This document shows positions 27,530 through 56,301 of a DNA stretch of 64,000 bases, piece after piece. The translations under genes and the position numbers were made by a program. The DNA comes from Dictyostelium discoideum (taxonomy: Eukaryota): the NCBI GenBank assembly GCA_000004695.1, contig CM000151.3:7296001-7360000 (forward strand), in the 5' to 3' direction. Under the pieces are notes generated by a model, which was not told where the DNA came from, did no database searches, and was given only the letters and a program-made list of their open reading frames with translations. Numbering within the stretch: position 1 is the first letter of the stretch; each line of letters begins with the position of its first letter.

Positions 27530-28488
27530 TATTTTAATTTAAAACTTACATAAATAATAATAAAAATAAAGAAATTAAAATTAATTGAAAATAACCTAAA
27601 CCAATTGGACCAATGAAAAGATATTGAGTATTACCAGAAAAGAATAAATTTAAAAGTTTTTCAAGGGTTGAGAGTAAGAGATTGATAGTTGGAGAATTTG
27701 AGAAATTTTTAAAACTTTTTCTTGGTATTGAAGAGGAATCATCCAAAGTAGCCAATAGGAAATGGTAAACGATATTTGCAGTTTCTTTGATGAGATCAGG
27801 ATCGAGATGATTTGGTTGATCACTTAATTCACCACTAATGAATGGCTTTTCAATGTCATTTGAGGAATGAGAATTCTCACCGTAAAAGTAATCGTTATCA
27901 GTGAGTAACATCGAGTCGACGCCAGCCCATGTGAATGGACCCTCGTCGCCTAAATAAGAGATCGAGTGTAAATGGTAACGGTGGGCTTGATACATCACCG
28001 ATACGCCAATACTCGAACTGCTACCCACCGCAATACCATCGACTGGATTCACAGCGTAGGCAGATTGCACCATTGAATTGACCAACCAACGTGGTGTGAA
28101 CAACGTCTGATGTTTATGTTCGTAGGGCAATGTCTGAATCATGACCCTATCATTGCCAATCGTATCTATATTCAAAAAGTAGGCTATCTCTGATTGAGAT
28201 GCCATCTTTGAGATTTTATTATTCGATACGAAACTTCTGCTACCCAATGCACCTGGATTCTCTTGATCAAACAATATAAACATGTATGGCGTATCGTTGG
28301 GAATACCCTCCATCTTTGACACTGCTTCTTGATGTCTAAATAATTCAATAGCCTCCTCTATCACCAATCCTGTACCTGATAAACAATCATGTGCTCCTGA
28401 TGTTCTATCTGGTGATCCCCAATATTTCGTATCGTAATGTGATGAAATTATTCTAATTGCTTTATTTTTACTATCATCATTACTACTA

Positions 28489-28522
<34 letters not shown>

Positions 28523-28991
28523 TTGTATTTATCCATATTATAATATTTATACCTGTCCAAGTTGTAGTTGTAATATTTTTACCTTCAGCTTTTCTTTCGT
28601 TCCATTCAAAATGATTCCAAATTATATTATCCTTTGGGAATCCACCCTCCTCAATTAAATAATCTCTAATGTATTCTCTTGCTATACTTCTACTTTCTTC
28701 GTAAACAATTTTTGAATTTCCAATTTCAATCAATCTTTTTGTATGATTTATAATTTTATCTGGCCTTATATTATTCCTTATTTTATCATTATTATCATTA
28801 TTATTATTTTTATTATTATTATTATTTTTATTATTATTATTATTATTATTAATTATATTATATATATTTTTATTATTAATTATATCATTTGAATCATTGT
28901 AAAAATATCGGGATATAAAAAATAAGATAATAAATACAATAAATGTAGTAATTAAATTTTTATTAAAATATAAATTTAATCCTTTTTTCAT
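26606..28991 (-). CDS. M28-family zinc metallopeptidase-domain polytopic membrane protein (ERMP1/FXNA-like architecture); 3 exons 28991..27550, 27419..26885, 26788..26606
   Basis: N-terminal signal anchor. M28 core: RIISSHYDTKYWGSPDRTSGAHDCLSGTGLVIEEAIELF ... FILFDQENPGALGSRSFV. Several TM helices follow. ORF 27546..28991 ends at ATG|GTAAGT, a phase-2 donor. It joins ORF 26789..27292, which is open upstream to an AG at 27420. A second intron (GTAAGT..AG, contains a T44/A44 run) joins the last exon YKDITQIMKFGRKG...YGYDYGKKKEELNKFDSGNKDK*. Confidence 0.7.
26823..26866. repeat. T44 homopolymer (A44 on coding strand) inside intron 2 of the M28 peptidase gene
   Basis: A run of 44 T in the 96-nt intron 26884..26789. 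Similar A/T homopolymers sit inside the cortexillin intron (9824..9858) and the PARP-like gene intron (11885..11920). Confidence 0.85.
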
Positions 28992-30414: not shown

Positions 30415-33026
30415 ATTATATTTATGAACAATTATCACCATTGGGTGGATTATTTGGTGAAGAAGTTACATGTCAATGTCCAATATATTCAACAGATGAA
30501 GCAGGTGATGTTGAATTAGTACCAAGAATATTAGTAATTGGAAAATATAGGATATTATTAATAAAGAAAGAAAAAGGGGAAAAAAAGGTTTTAAAGAAAA
30601 ATATACATTTATATGATTTAATTGAAGTATCAGAACCAATTATAAATTGTAATTTTAATGCAATGCCAAATATTATAGAGATAAAATATAGGGATAACTC
30701 ATCAACAGGTGGAAGTGGTGGTGGTGGTGGTGGTGGTGGTGCAGCCGCAGGTGGAGGAGGGGGTGCAATGACAGGAGGTGCAACATCAGCATCACAAGCA
30801 TTACATAATCAATCACAAATTAAATCATTTATAATACAATCACCAAGTAGAGAGATTGAAATTATTATAGTAAAAACGTTAGCATTAACATCATGGTCAA
30901 TTTCAAAAGGGTTCCCACAAGAGTATATAATGAGGGTAAATTTAAATAACCCACCCAACCGATACCCACAATTGAAATTCGATCATGATATTGGTATTGC
31001 CGATGGTAAAGGTATTGCAGAGTGTTATATAGCGCATTCACATTATTTCAATACCAAATCAACATTGGACTATCTTAGACATTTGGAAACACTTTATCAA
31101 AGTAGATACCCGGAATTGGACTTATCAGACATAGCGGGTATTGACGCAACCTCATCATTGGGATTCAATTTATACACTGGTATCATATGCTTACGTCATA
31201 ATAGATTCATCAGATCGTTAAAGGCCAATTCAATACCACATATAAACGTAACGTCGGCCATTGGCGAAATGATGTTGACCAATAAAACCATCACCCAATT
31301 GGAGATCACCAATCTATTGACAGAGCAAAGTTTTACACCAATTGGTAATTTTTTAAAGAATAATCCATTCACAAGTTTACAAATCCTAAATCTTTCAAAT
31401 AATACAATGAATAATGAGTCGGTGGTGGGGTTATGCGACGGGTTGGCTAATTTCAATCATTCCCTATTGTCGTTGAATTTGTCGGGTTGTTCAATACCAA
31501 CCAAGGGTGTGGCATTGTTGTTCAATTCCCTTCAAAAGAATTTCGGTATGTCATTGACATTGGAGGAATTGATTCTATCAGATAACAGATTTCAAGATGC
31601 TGGTAGTTCAGCTATGTCATCATGGTTGAATAAAACCAGAGGTTATAATAGATTGAAGAGATTAATCCTATCAAATTCTCAATTAAACATTGGTATGATA
31701 GCACCCTCATTGAAAGTACTAAGTTGTATAGAGTCATTGGATCTCTCAAAGAATTCAATTAATATTCAATCTTGTAGAACTCTATCGATGGATGGTTTGG
31801 AGGGTATCGAATCAAGGGAATTTAAAAACTTGAATCTTTCATCATGTGGTTTAGTCGGTGAATCAATTGCAACATTATTGGTTGCACTATCGAGAAATTC
31901 AAAATTACATAATCTAACATTAAATTTACAACGTAATGGTTTCGCTCAAAAAACAGCACTCATTCTAATTCAATTGCTACCACAATGTGCAAAATCATTC
32001 TTGACTGGTTTAGATTTATCTTTTAATTCATTCAATGCAAGACAACTTGCTGATATAGTTCAGTCGCTTATGGGTACATGTATTGAGAGTTTAGATATTG
32101 GTAATAACTATTTAGATTCTGATTTGGTTTTAAAAGTTGCAGAATTGGTTAAAGATAATGGTTTGGTTAAATTAGGAATTGGCCATCAAAGTAAACCATT
32201 GTCATCTGCATTGCATCCTCTATTATTGGCAGTCGGGTCAAGCAAAACCATGCAGGTATTGGATATAGTTGGTAATGAGCTAAATGATCATGGTGCTTGT
32301 ATATTGGCCGATTGTTTACGTCATAATAAAACATTGAAACGTTTATATATCAATGGTAATAAATTCACTTATGTGGGTTGGATGTCATTATCATCACCTT
32401 TTATTTTCTATAGAAATACAACTTTACTTCATTTGGATTTACCAACTCTCTCTGATCCAATCCAATTGAGTGATTCCAATAGTACAATTTTATCACCAAT
32501 TAAACGTGATCAAATGGAACGTGATACCTTCTCAAAAGTTAGACTTCAATTAATTTTAAATAAGAATAAAGTACCACAAAGTAGTAGATTCGCTTATCTT
32601 CCAAATTATGATGAACCACCAACTTATGTCGCTCCAATTGCAACCGTACCTGAACATTTATTAGTCTATTGTACAATTTTACCATCTGCAATTGATCAAA
32701 TGGAAAAAATTAATTTAAATAGTTTAAATGGTAATATCTCAAATGGAAATAATAGTATCAGAATCAATTTAGCAATTGGTGGTAATGGTACAGTTGGTCA
32801 TTCTTCTTCAACAAATACTGGTAGTGGTGGTGGTGGTGGTAATATTCGTCCTTCATTATCATCAATCTTTTCAAAACCAATTAGTTTAATTAATGATATC
32901 AGAGGTGGTGGTGGTAGTAGTGATACCATTAATTCTAATAACAATTCAAGAGTTTCAACACCATTATCTTGGAATGAAAATGATAATTATAATCGTAATG
33001 ATGATGATAAAGAAGAATTAAAATAA
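30415..33026 (+). CDS. CARMIL-like leucine-rich-repeat protein (N-terminal PH-like region then RNI-type LRRs); first coding exon not resolved
   Basis: The open frame begins right after an intron acceptor (..aaaaaatag|AT, phase 1) at 30414 and has no in-frame ATG for about 80 codons. PH-like region PRILVIGKYRILLIKKEKGEKKVLKKNIHLYDLIEV. About 15 RNI/CARMIL-type LRRs follow, for example LQILNLSNNTMNNESVVGLCDGLANFNHSLLSLNLSGCSIPTKGVALLFNSL. A candidate exon 1, ATGCAAGAACCATTAGAAATTACTCCATCAGACCAAAG at about 30196, has no usable GT donor. Confidence 0.6.
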
Positions 33027-47112: not shown

Positions 47113-49014
47113 TTAAGAATTTGAATGATTTTTACCTGATAAAACTCTGTCTAAATTAAAAGCAGCACTAATTAAACTTAAATGAGTGAAAGCTTGTGGA
47201 AAATTACCTAAAGCTTCACCACCAATACCAATTTCTTCAGAGAATAAACCCAAATGATTTGCATAACCTAACATTTCATCAAATATTAAACGAGCTTTAA
47301 CTAGATATTCTTTATTGACAACGGAAGCTCTTGTTAAACTTTCGATTAACCAAAATGTACAAATATTGAAAGTACCTTCTTCACCATCCAAACCATCGGT
47401 TGCAATATGATCATCATGACCATGGGTTAGATTATAACGAAATACCAAAGAGTTTGCAACTAGACCTCCTTCTTCCACTGGTTTGAGTATTGCTTCTAAT
47501 GTTGCTAAATTTCTTGGGTCTGATGGAGCCATAAAGAAAACCAACGACATTATCAATGTTGAAGCATCCAATGCTTTACTACCATAGAATTGAGTAATCT
47601 TTGTCCATTTATCACGTGGGGCTGGGAATGATCTACGATCTGCCAAACGCAATCCTCTATCCAATGCCACCCAACACATTATCTTGGAGTAGGTGAAATG
47701 TTGTTTACCACTTCTAACTTCCCAAATACCTTCATCCTTGGTTTGATAATTATCAGCCACCCAATCGACCATCTTCCTAATATGTAACCAAAAATCGTAG
47801 GAAACCAACGACCCATACTTATTGGAGAGATAAATCGAATCCATAAACTCGCCGAAAATGTCCATTTGAACTTGATTGATTGCATCATTACCAACTCTAA
47901 CCGGCTTGCTATCTCTATAGCCTGAAAGATGGTCCAATGTGTATTCGGGGATTTTATCATCGCCATGAATGCTATACATGACACGCACGGGCATGCTTCT
48001 TTTTGGGTCGTCATAAACTGCTTCGGCACATCTTGTTTCCAACCATTTCATAAATGCATGTGCTTCTTCAATGAAGCCAATTCTAATCAAACCATAGACA
48101 GAGAAACTTGAATCTCTCAACCAAGCGTATCTGTAATCCCAATTTCTAGGCCCACCCAATCCCTCTGGTAGCGAACAAGTTGGCGAGGCAATGATTGCAC
48201 CCGTTGGAGCGAATGTCATAAGCTTCAAACATAGTGCACTACGTTCCACGATTTCCCTCCATCTTCCCTTGTAAGTGCATTTCTCCAACCATTTTTGCCA
48301 GTAGAATATGGTGCCCATGAATAATTCATTCTCCAATTTGCCAATATCCTCTGGAACACGATAGAGATGCTTTGGAAACAAGTCTACACTATCAAACGAT
48401 TCCTTTAGTATGAACACCACCACATCATTCTCTTTGACAGTGAAGACCGATTCTAGGAACCCCCCATTTCCATCATTGATAAGTGTCATTGGAATCTTTG
48501 ATATTAAATCTAAATTGATCTTTGTAGGCTCAGATTGAATATTGTAACCAAATTCTGTTTTCTCCATTTTATGTTTATCTAATGCGAAATTGAATGTTGG
48601 TTTGAATATCATTTTCATATCTAATTTGCCTCTGATTCCTTTAACTTTTCTAACTAACCATTTCGAGCCTTTTCCATCTACAACTGGCATATAATCAATC
48701 ACTGATGCTACCGATTCAACTAAATGAAATCTACTCTGAAGTACATTTGTATCTGGCCAATAGCTTTGCTTGGTTTTGGTTTGTTTACACTTCGATCTCA
48801 ATGTTTCTGGTGCAATACGCCAATGTCCACCCTTTTCACAATCTAACAATGAGCAAAACATAGCTGGTGAATCAAAATGCGGCCAACACATAAAATTAAT
48901 ATCAGCATGAATTGATATCAATGCACTTGTTAACATATTTCCAATAACTCCATGATTTTCAATTAATGGATAAGATTCACAAACTCCATCAATTTCAATT
49001 TCATTACTTGCCAT
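47113..49014 (-). CDS. glycoside hydrolase family 15-related protein (glucoamylase / bacterial-type trehalase-like), intronless
   Basis: Single 633-aa ORF. GH15-type motifs: NWDYRYAWLRDSSFSVYGLIRIGFIEEAHAFMKWL and FWLHIRKMVDWVADNYQTKDEGIWE. No signal peptide. By eye the GC content is clearly higher than in neighbouring genes (many GGC/GCC/CGC codons). The short ORFs 47679..48029 and 47929..48111 are alternative frames of this gene. Confidence 0.75.
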   Translation of the reverse strand: MASNEIEIDGVCESYPLIENHGVIGNMLTSALISIHADINFMCWPHFDSPAMFCSLLDCEKGGHWRIAPETLRSKCKQTKTKQSYWPDTNVLQSRFHLVESVASVIDYMPVVDGKGSKWLVRKVKGIRGKLDMKMIFKPTFNFALDKHKMEKTEFGYNIQSEPTKINLDLISKIPMTLINDGNGGFLESVFTVKENDVVVFILKESFDSVDLFPKHLYRVPEDIGKLENELFMGTIFYWQKWLEKCTYKGRWREIVERSALCLKLMTFAPTGAIIASPTCSLPEGLGGPRNWDYRYAWLRDSSFSVYGLIRIGFIEEAHAFMKWLETRCAEAVYDDPKRSMPVRVMYSIHGDDKIPEYTLDHLSGYRDSKPVRVGNDAINQVQMDIFGEFMDSIYLSNKYGSLVSYDFWLHIRKMVDWVADNYQTKDEGIWEVRSGKQHFTYSKIMCWVALDRGLRLADRRSFPAPRDKWTKITQFYGSKALDASTLIMSLVFFMAPSDPRNLATLEAILKPVEEGGLVANSLVFRYNLTHGHDDHIATDGLDGEEGTFNICTFWLIESLTRASVVNKEYLVKARLIFDEMLGYANHLGLFSEEIGIGGEALGNFPQAFTHLSLISAAFNLDRVLSGKNHSNS

Positions 49015-49119
49015 TTTAAATTTTTAAAAAAATAATTTATTTATTTATTAATTAATAATTGGGTAATAATTGGTTAATTAATTTTTAATAATAATAATAA
49101 TTTTTTTTTTTTAATTTTT

Positions 49120-49150
<31 letters not shown>

Positions 49151-49770
49151 GGAAATCCCTTTTAATGGAAAAAAAAAAAAAAAAAAAAAAAGGAATTAAT
49201 GTTATTTATATGTAAATAAAGTAGTAATACAATATTATAATAAAAAAAAAATATGTAATATTAATATTAATTAAGTAAATAATAAAAAAAAAAAAAAATA
49301 ATAATGTTAATATTTTTTTATTTTTTTATTTATTTATTTTTTTTATTTATTTATTTAATTAATTTATTTATTTGTTAATCTGCCATACACATTAAAAATT
49401 TAATTGAAATAATATTTTTAATAAAAAATAATACACTACAACTTTTTTTATTTTTTTATTTGTTTTTTTTTTTTTTGAATTGGTTTATTATTTTATTTGT
49501 ATACATTGTGGTAAATTTAACATTCCAAAAATTATGGTGTGAAGTGCAGTTTGGGTGTTCATTTACAAAAAAATAATTTTAAATTTTTTTTTTTTTTTTT
49601 TTTATTGAAATAATGCCCCCCTGTATATATATATGTATGATTTATAGATTTTATTTTATTTTTTAAAAGTTCAGTGAGTTGCGAATATAATATTTTTAAT
49701 ATATTAAAAAAAAAAAAATTTTATTTATTTTTGTATGACTAATTTCAGAAACTGTTTTTTAAATTATTTT

Positions 49771-49811
<41 letters not shown>

Positions 49812-50119
49812 AAAAATAAAAAAAAAAAAGAATTTAAGCGCTAAAAATTTTATTTTCTTTTTTTTTTTTTTTTTATTTATTTTGGAAACATAAAAAATCG
49901 ATACAGCTTGTTTTCTTTATTTATTTAATAAACATTTAAATAAGAATTTCACACGCGCCCTATGATTGAAATAACGAAAATAAAAGAGTCAAAAACTAAA
50001 ACAATAAATAAATAAACAATAACCAAATAAAACTCAACATTAAACTTTTTTTTTTATTTTTTTTTATTTAATTTTATAATTGTATAATAAAAAATAATAA
50101 TAATAAAAACAATAATAAA

Positions 50120-52205
<2,086 letters not shown>

Positions 52206-52546
52206 TACTTTTAATTGGGTATTAATTTCCATTTTTTTTTTCAAATTATTTTTTGTTTCTTTTTCTTTTTCTTTTTTTTTTTTCAATTTATTTTTTTTTA
52301 ATAAAATGTACAACAAATCATATTTATTAATATTAATTTATTTATTAAAATTTGAATTTTTTTTTTTTTTTTTTTTTTTTTCTTTGTTTTTTAAATCTAA
52401 GTTTTTTTTTCTTATAATTTTTATTTTTGTTTTTTATATTTTATTTAAAAGAAAAAATATTTTTTTTTTTTCCTAATTTTTTCAATTTTTTTTTTTCACT
52501 TTACATTTTTTTTTTTTTTAATAACCACCAACCCAAATTAAATTTA

Positions 52547-56301
<3,755 letters not shown>

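Follow-up and report, generated by a model that had tools for sequence, protein, structure and literature searches.

Does a comparatively GC-rich, intronless hydrolase gene of bacterial type, set among AT-rich and intron-bearing genes of Dictyostelium discoideum, represent a recent acquisition from bacteria? The question is raised by a stretch of 64,000 nucleotides (contig CM000151.3, positions 7,296,001 to 7,360,000, assembly GCA_000004695.1), referred to here as the window. The gene occupies positions 47113..49014 on the minus strand. Its open reading frame (ORF) runs from 49014 down to 47113 over 633 codons without interruption, and the ORF list together with an exact-sequence look-up identified it as the complete single-exon coding sequence (CDS) of DDB_G0277045. 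The protein of 633 amino acids (aa) is identical to the D. discoideum AX4 entries Q550P8 and XP_642884.1 and is annotated as a hypothetical protein. A preliminary description of the window had recognised a glycoside hydrolase family 15 (GH15) gene with a single uninterrupted frame and no polyasparagine or polyglutamine (poly-N/Q) tract, GC-richer than its surroundings, flanked by intron-interrupted genes and of a type typical of bacteria. All of these features were confirmed, the frame down to its exact boundaries; the strand had been left unstated. The same description proposed a bacterial origin by horizontal gene transfer (HGT). The results given here indicate that DDB_G0277045 is, with good probability, a long-resident and vertically inherited amoebozoan gene encoding a cytosolic TreH-like GH15 hydrolase, with an ancient entry and a recently damaged allele in AX4.

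The protein is composed of two domains. The N-terminal TREH_N beta-sandwich domain (aa 15-199; 48418..48972, minus strand) was found with Pfam PF19291 at an E-value of 7e-17, and residues 21-205 are all-beta in the AlphaFold2 (AF2) model. The GH15 (alpha/alpha)6-barrel catalytic domain covers aa ~224-626 (47137..48345, minus strand) according to Pfam PF00723, AF2 and Foldseek. Its Glyco_hydro_15 match has an E-value of 1e-62, its 212.8 bits exceed the cutoff of 22, and the best Pfam stretch is aa 253-563. AF2 modelling of the full-length D. citrinum ortholog with a 40-sequence alignment placed the beta-sandwich at residues 21-205 and the helical barrel from residue 224 onwards, with a predicted local distance difference test (pLDDT) score of 78.5 and a predicted template modelling (TM) score of 0.83. 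The mean pLDDT of the N-domain was about 85-87 in the AF2 models. In the Foldseek search against the PDB, the best match was the bacterial GH15 glucoamylase 1lf6 (TM 0.70), followed by dextran dextrinase and glucodextranase. When the PDB was searched by sequence, neither the single protein nor a profile gave a significant relative (profile E ~0.2).

Two glutamates, both invariant in 40 homologs, are the predicted catalytic residues. Glu432 in GIWEVR (codon 47719..47721, minus strand) lies in conserved region 3 and is the predicted general acid. Glu593 in GLFSEEI (codon 47236..47238, minus strand) lies in conserved region 5 and is the predicted general base. A profile alignment pairs the WE of GIWEVR with the WEE acid motif of 1agm, a glucoamylase chain from Aspergillus; the first Glu of that motif is the catalytic Glu179 according to literature cited in PMC11327188. 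In GH15 trehalases, conserved regions 3 and 5 are described as the sites of the two catalytic Glu residues, and Glu593 would be the general base by analogy with Glu571 of Tvn1315 (PMC11327188). A signal peptide was not evident when the N-terminus was read by eye. On these sequence features, DDB_G0277045 likely encodes an inverting alpha-glucosidase that belongs to the trehalase-like GH15 subfamily and works in the cytosol. In such an enzyme, the N-terminal beta-sandwich would pack on the (alpha/alpha)6 barrel, and Glu432 as the acid and Glu593 as the base would hydrolyse the alpha-glucosidic bond with inversion.

We infer that the enzyme is most likely a trehalase, which would convert trehalose to two molecules of glucose. 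The NCBIfam hidden Markov models (HMMs) of archaeal TreH1 and TreH2 align end to end with the protein at 334 and 270 bits, and the oligosaccharide amylase model TIGR01577 gives 27 bits over about 130 residues. In addition, Pfam names the N-domain TREH_N. A homolog from Microvirga is 44% identical to DDB_G0277045, and a GH15 trehalase of another Microvirga strain has been characterised (PMC10969515). An alternative is a different GH15 activity, such as that of a glucoamylase, a glucodextranase or an isomaltose glucohydrolase, with glucans or disaccharides of the cytosol as substrates; this reading falls only somewhat short of being probable. It is favoured by the glucoamylase, dextran dextrinase and glucodextranase folds being the closest solved ones, and by a TreH1 score under the curated cutoff. 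However, no GH15 trehalase structure was there to compete in the fold search, and both TreH models match over the full length. The surroundings of the bacterial homologs also count for it. An expected linkage to otsA/otsB was not borne out in the bacterial neighbourhoods sampled. The commonest neighbour family there is that of the short-chain dehydrogenases (7 of 140 flanking ORFs). Of two annotated plasmid loci that were inspected, one, on a Pontibacter plasmid (L091 4998-7965), has a glucose 1-dehydrogenase gene directly after the GH15 homolog; this adjacency indicates only that glucose is the product. With trehalose as the most likely substrate, one candidate role would be to mobilise the trehalose reserve of spores or to regulate it.

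The history of the gene was judged from its relatives. Orthologs were present in every sampled dictyostelid group, with identities of 93% in D. citrinum, 77% in D. purpureum, 67% in P. violaceum, 63-64% in Tieghemostelium, Heterostelium and Synstelium, and 60% in Cavenderia; Acytostelium has an ortholog too. Each species has one GH15 copy among the dictyostelid matches listed, and no search was aimed at second copies. As for the gene models, that of Cavenderia (P0009) is fused to an Sm-domain protein and that of D. purpureum (P0002) is without the N-terminal ~100 residues. The next-nearest proteins after those of the dictyostelids came from EukProt transcriptomes of Clastostelium and Ceratiomyxa (Protosporangiida) and of Protostelium. 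More divergent second copies were seen in Clastostelium (P0225) and Protostelium (P0226). These paralogs group within the amoebozoan clade, and therefore an old duplication is implied. Two environmental proteins of 654-665 aa (P0016 and P0119, from 2.1-kb metagenome or Logan contigs) also stand within the amoebozoan clade, beside Dictyostelia and Protosporangiida, and may belong to unsampled relatives.

Outside Amoebozoa, the highest identities among the matches listed belong to bacterial proteins. The best of these are 52-54% identical to the Dictyostelium protein over its full length and 57-59% identical to that of Clastostelium. The close bacterial matches include Nitrospirota, Acidobacteriota, Chloroflexota, Planctomycetota, cyanobacteria and myxobacteria; the actinomycete and proteobacterial homologs are 39-44% identical to the Dictyostelium protein. 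An exhaustive search of a representative library gave 18226 proteins at E <= 0.001, and the named matches came from many phyla. The GH15 subfamily of DDB_G0277045 is overwhelmingly bacterial. Homologs were also found in 284 plasmid records, with 76 mobilizable or conjugative plasmids. On the other hand, the long proteins among the best representatives turned out to be fungal (Coemansia, Blastocladiella and Cutaneotrichosporon). A search with the Blastocladiella core sequence brought out a fungal clade from Blastocladiomycota, Glomeromycotina, Mucoromycotina and Zoopagomycota, to which some Basidiomycota also belong. Its members (P0228, P0230, P0231, P0233 and P0385-P0488) are annotated just as 'six-hairpin glycosidase-like' or 'GH15'. 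As an oddity of annotation, some JGI metagenome proteins of the GH15 family (606-607 aa; P0454, P0461 and P0473) are labelled 'pentatricopeptide repeat protein'. A further protein of 932 aa (P0227) from a 37.9-kb Logan contig of an AT-rich eukaryote carries long N-rich low-complexity inserts and stands with the fungal group in the neighbour-joining tree. The prokaryote-type TreH-like GH15 subfamily has two eukaryotic groups, namely evosean Amoebozoa and a broad range of fungi; no homolog from any other eukaryotic group was among the matches listed.

Trees were calculated by neighbour-joining (NJ) with 99, 172 and 119 taxa, 568-591 trimmed columns and 100-200 bootstraps. Maximum likelihood (ML) trees were obtained with a custom implementation using Gonnet-derived exchangeabilities, empirical frequencies, four gamma categories and a nearest-neighbour interchange (NNI) search. 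Dictyostelia were monophyletic with 100% NJ bootstrap, and their internal groupings match the species tree. The group of Dictyostelia, Protosporangiida and the two environmental sequences received 85-100% in the NJ trees. All Amoebozoa, including the paralogs, were united with 74% NJ bootstrap and were monophyletic in every ML tree. On this phylogenetic evidence, the history of the GH15 gene within Amoebozoa is vertical. The gene would have entered the eukaryotic line before the Dictyostelia parted from Protosporangiida and Protosteliida. The preliminary proposal of a bacterial-origin HGT gene holds as far as the family is of bacterial type and patchy in eukaryotes. It fails in that the gene is neither Dictyostelium-specific nor recent; its closest relatives are eukaryotes that branch in a vertical pattern, an outcome which the preliminary description itself had named as refuting. 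A bacterial origin is thus plausible but ancient, as suggested by the spread of the family across taxa and by the shortness of the eukaryotic stem.

How many times the gene entered eukaryotes is a separate matter. Fungi were monophyletic with 100% NJ bootstrap. The monophyly of eukaryotes received just 10-18% in the NJ trees, where support for the bacterial backbone was negligible. In the 44-taxon ML tree, Amoebozoa and Fungi are united. If the fungal clade is placed elsewhere and the tree is re-optimised, only 5.3 log-likelihood (lnL) units are lost (z 0.28), and the resampling of estimated log-likelihoods (RELL) gives 0.55 for eukaryote monophyly, which is not significant. With 119 taxa, the NNI optimum reached from the NJ start splits Amoebozoa from Fungi, but the tree constrained to eukaryote monophyly is 3.4 lnL better (z 0.17). 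In this constrained tree, the eukaryote clade joins between two large bacterial groups. A minimum-variance rooting of the ML tree was uninformative, the best roots being on terminal branches. The identity over trimmed columns of Amoebozoa is 0.59-0.60 to one slowly evolving bacterial group, 0.50 to fungi and 0.47-0.50 to the actinomycete and proteobacterial homologs. The slowly evolving bacterial group is, however, the nearest one to each other group compared, and best-hit similarity therefore says little about ancestry.

These results bear on the possibility that bacteria passed the gene on twice in ancient times, to an early evosean amoebozoan and, independently, to an early fungus, with the gene never present in the common ancestor of Amoebozoa and Fungi. 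Such a history is tenable, though we would rather doubt it. The low bootstrap of eukaryote monophyly and the parting of both clades in the 119-taxon NNI optimum speak for it, as do the absence of other eukaryotic groups among the matches listed and the identities to the slow bacterial group (0.59 for Amoebozoa and 0.54 for Fungi, against 0.50 to each other). Nevertheless, the ML trees of 44 and 119 taxa are both slightly better when Amoebozoa and Fungi are united, and the best placements of the fungal clade, before full re-optimisation, were at or inside Amoebozoa. The likelihood differences are insignificant either way (z 0.17-0.29). A single clade of Amoebozoa and Fungi is slightly favoured by ML, without significance, and the entry of the gene may predate the divergence of the two.

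In contrast to these two alternatives, a recent or lineage-specific bacterial transfer into Dictyostelium, with the high GC and the missing introns as leftovers of the donor, is very improbable. Orthologs in other amoebozoans as well as in every dictyostelid group, arranged in a tree that matches the species groupings, do not agree with it, even though bacterial proteins are 52-54% identical and the family occurs on mobilizable or conjugative plasmids. The chromosomal context is also old. The order E1 - DP - GH15, with genes for the ubiquitin-activating enzyme E1 and a DP transcription factor, is common to D. discoideum (window 50120-56000) and P. violaceum (L083 1-2073) as judged by tblastx and Pfam; at the H. 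album locus the order is not kept. The absence of introns in D. discoideum had been taken as a sign of transfer. The P. violaceum ortholog is intronless too, but that of H. album is split by two canonical AT-rich introns, one of 76 nt (L084 3319-3394) and one of 60 nt (L084 4123-4182). They read GTAAGT..AG and GTATGT..AG, and their removal rebuilds the annotated protein exactly. Therefore, the absence of introns in D. discoideum carries no weight.

The base composition was the other sign put forward. The GC content of the gene is 37.0% against 22.3% in the window and 9-17% in the intergenic flanks. The GC contents at the three codon positions (GC1/2/3) are 0.43/0.37/0.305, and those at the third position (GC3) of the other window ORFs of at least 180 aa are 0.07-0.25, with a mean of ~0.15 and a standard deviation of ~0.05. 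The codons had been described as full of GGC, GCC, CGC and ACC. This was found to be wrong, since GGC occurs 8 times, GCC 3 times, CGC 0 times and ACC 7 times, which makes 18 of 633 codons. The choice is host-like. GGT (21), GCT (13), CGT (9) and AGA (19) are frequent, and the host-typical GGT, GCT/GCA, AGA/CGT and CCA predominate. The main carriers of the GC3 excess are TTG, TCG, GTG, AAG and TTC. Codon positions 1 and 2 account for about half of the GC excess, the protein being N/Q-poor and W/R/G/A/V/M-rich. It contains 4.3% N and 1.7% Q against 12.7% and 5.2% in the pooled neighbouring ORFs, and it has no poly-N/Q tract.

GC3 changes along the gene in the form of a hump: it is 0.08-0.15 at either end and 0.45-0.5 over codons 180-450. 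Two unrelated ORFs, at 27546-28991 (minus) and 30663-33026 (plus), equal the GH15 gene in their local maxima, with a GC3 of 0.52-0.53 over 60 codons, and such humps are therefore not unique to this gene in the window. In the intragenic codon landscape published for Dictyostelium, the first ~120 and the last ~50 codons depart little from the AT-driven neutral pattern (PMC8321536). GC-biased gene conversion was considered as the source of the mid-gene hump and was rejected, because it is reported to be absent in D. discoideum (PMC8321536). The P. violaceum ortholog has a GC3 of 0.42 against 0.23-0.31 for its neighbouring ORFs, and the H. album ortholog 0.37-0.41 against 0.25-0.28. Each is the richest locally, so that the same relative excess recurs in genomes of differing GC. 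Because the orthologs share this excess and the hump fits the published landscape, the GC excess is a conserved property of the gene rather than a relic of a donor. Moreover, a transfer predating the Dictyostelia should not leave a donor composition at synonymous sites. One half of the excess would then reflect the conserved amino-acid composition, N/Q-poor and W/R/G/A-rich, and the other half a mid-gene hump of codons not ending in A or T, as in the general codon landscape of Dictyostelium. Since its entry, the gene seems to have evolved like any other nuclear gene, keeping its synteny, gaining or losing introns and showing the codon usage of its host. Bacterial contamination or misassembly of the reference genome, for which only the GC contrast could be quoted, can practically be dismissed, as the gene lies between AT-rich intergenic DNA and intron-bearing eukaryotic genes and the same locus is present in four other Dictyostelium assemblies.

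The AX4 allele itself differs from all its relatives. The AX4 protein is without 20 residues, RDTIYEEIQEKGFNKDLQTF, between Ile473 and Thr474, which all relatives, bacterial and eukaryotic, have. DNA alignment with the wild isolates L081/L082 located the junction of a 60-bp in-frame deletion of the AX4-like lineage at 47597..47598 (minus strand; CDS nt 1417/1418), and TTA microhomology was seen at the junction. The independent AX4-like assembly GCA_054883475.1, which agrees with the window at 99.4% identity along 11.9 kb, has the same 60-bp deletion. Therefore, the deletion is not an assembly error. In contigs of four Sequence Read Archive (SRA) runs, the CDS matches that of GCA_054883475.1 except that the 60 bp are intact; besides the 60 bp, these contigs differ from the window CDS at CDS nt 4, 16 and 17 only. 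The 60 bp are also intact in more distant D. discoideum isolates and in four other Dictyostelium species. The deletion must therefore be very recent. Logan contigs of ~2 kb were considered as transcripts and thus as evidence of expression, but they were rejected, since they end at low-complexity AT runs of the genome.

The structural consequences were examined with AF2. The deletion takes away 12 of the 19 residues that form the barrel helix 467-485, together with the strand after this helix; five of the residues lost are nearly invariant. When AX4 and full-length proteins were modelled with the same alignment, the mean pLDDT of the catalytic domain dropped from ~77 to ~64.5 in AX4, whereas that of the N-domain stayed at 85-87. 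The helix 467-485 was shortened to 467-473 in the AX4 model. Judged from these models, the AX4 allele is probably null or impaired.

Several observations weigh against the overall reading of a long-resident vertical gene for a TreH-like hydrolase with a damaged AX4 allele. The GC3 of 0.305 is the top value among the 22 window ORFs of at least 180 aa (z ~3), as a ranking within the window. The trees are without an outgroup and their backbone support is near zero, and the nesting of the eukaryotic clade or clades in bacteria is not demonstrated by them. The TreH1 score of 334 bits lies far below the cutoff of 820 and the TreH2 score of 270 below that of 1000, which makes the protein a relative and no equivalog. 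There were no trehalose genes among the bacterial GH15 neighbours (140 flanking ORFs; best 25 of 151 families). Finally, AF2 confidence is no measure of stability, and the loss of function in AX4 is therefore a probable one. Considering all the evidence, we still hold the reading as a whole to be probable.

Several consequences follow from it. DDB_G0277045 should not be counted among the bacterial acquisitions specific to Dictyostelium, and a false lead is thereby removed; composition alone had misjudged it. Two coherent eukaryotic clades of prokaryote-type TreH-like GH15 proteins, in evosean Amoebozoa and in fungi, are recorded. The AX4 reference allele is atypical, being without 20 conserved barrel residues, and phenotypes or structural models based on the reference may mislead. 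A more far-reaching proposal is that Amoebozoa and Fungi share one anciently acquired cytosolic GH15 trehalase, of which AX4 is a natural near-null mutant through the 60-bp deletion. We regard it as unlikely. A 2023 review states that GH15 trehalases have been reported solely from archaea and bacteria (PMC10969515), and no description of the amoebozoan or fungal GH15 clades as trehalases was found in the literature searched. If the proposal is true, these clades would be a class of eukaryotic trehalose-degrading enzymes so far unrecognised, GH15 trehalases being described from prokaryotes only. Strains of the AX4 type and strains with the intact allele would then directly test the role in the mobilisation of spore trehalose.

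The surroundings of the gene complete the picture of a chromosomally integrated locus, set between AT-rich intergenic DNA and intron-bearing eukaryotic genes and present in other assemblies. On one side, its neighbours are a WD40 gene and a TLDc/LysM gene, and on the other side the intron-split genes of the DP factor and the E1 enzyme; the WD40 gene is intron-split as well. The composition profile delimits an AT-rich intergenic region of 9-17% GC at 49015..50119, common to the GH15 gene and the divergently transcribed DP gene. The syntenic neighbours DP and E1, both with introns, occupy 50120..56000 on the plus strand (Pfam DP, E2F_TDP, ThiF and UBA_E1_SCCH), and the DP/E2F_TDP domains were located by Pfam in the ORFs 50120-51274 and 51411-52205. 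Around the start of the GH15 gene (window 48998-49054), the reference alone differs by eight A/T substitutions, three of them in codons 2 and 6 (A2S, I6Y) and five in the 5' leader. The contigs of the four SRA runs show all eight, and the AX4-like assembly L089 shares the three coding ones in a base-by-base comparison of the CDS. Errors in the old reference could account for these substitutions, as could private mutations. No mention of DDB_G0277045, or of GH15 HGT in Dictyostelium, was found in the papers searched.

The predicted enzyme can be compared with several known systems. The archaeal and bacterial GH15 trehalases (Tvn1315 and Ta0286 of Thermoplasma, TreH1 and TreH2 of Sulfolobus, and those of Mycobacterium smegmatis, Mycobacterium tuberculosis and Microvirga sp. 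MC18) have the same beta-sandwich and (alpha/alpha)6 barrel. Like them, DDB_G0277045 has both conserved Glu residues, a full-length match to the TreH1 and TreH2 HMMs and no evident signal peptide. Unlike them, it is eukaryotic, scores 334 bits against an equivalog cutoff of 820, and has a predicted activity. The best structural likeness is to the bacterial glucoamylase 1lf6 and the glucodextranase 1ug9, with TM scores of 0.69-0.70 over both domains, but the sequence identity to these is just 14-15%. The fungal GH15 clade belongs to the same subfamily with the same pair of domains, is ~50% identical on trimmed columns and is a possible sister group in the ML trees, without significance. Unlike DDB_G0277045, the fungal proteins are longer (650-990 aa) and carry low-complexity inserts. 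None of them is named as a characterised enzyme in the sources listed, and no literature search was aimed at the fungal members.

A last comparison concerns earlier candidates of transfer. The classic HGT candidates of Dictyostelium, which include ThyX, OsmC, polyphosphate kinase, peptidase M15/S13, Endotoxin_N, IucA/IucC and others, are likewise of bacterial type and patchy in eukaryotes. DDB_G0277045 is not on this list as quoted in the D. giganteum preprint. The gene differs from these candidates in the distribution of its family, which is found in fungi and in other amoebozoans as well, whereas the list in the genome paper was reportedly drawn up from Pfam domains restricted to bacteria.

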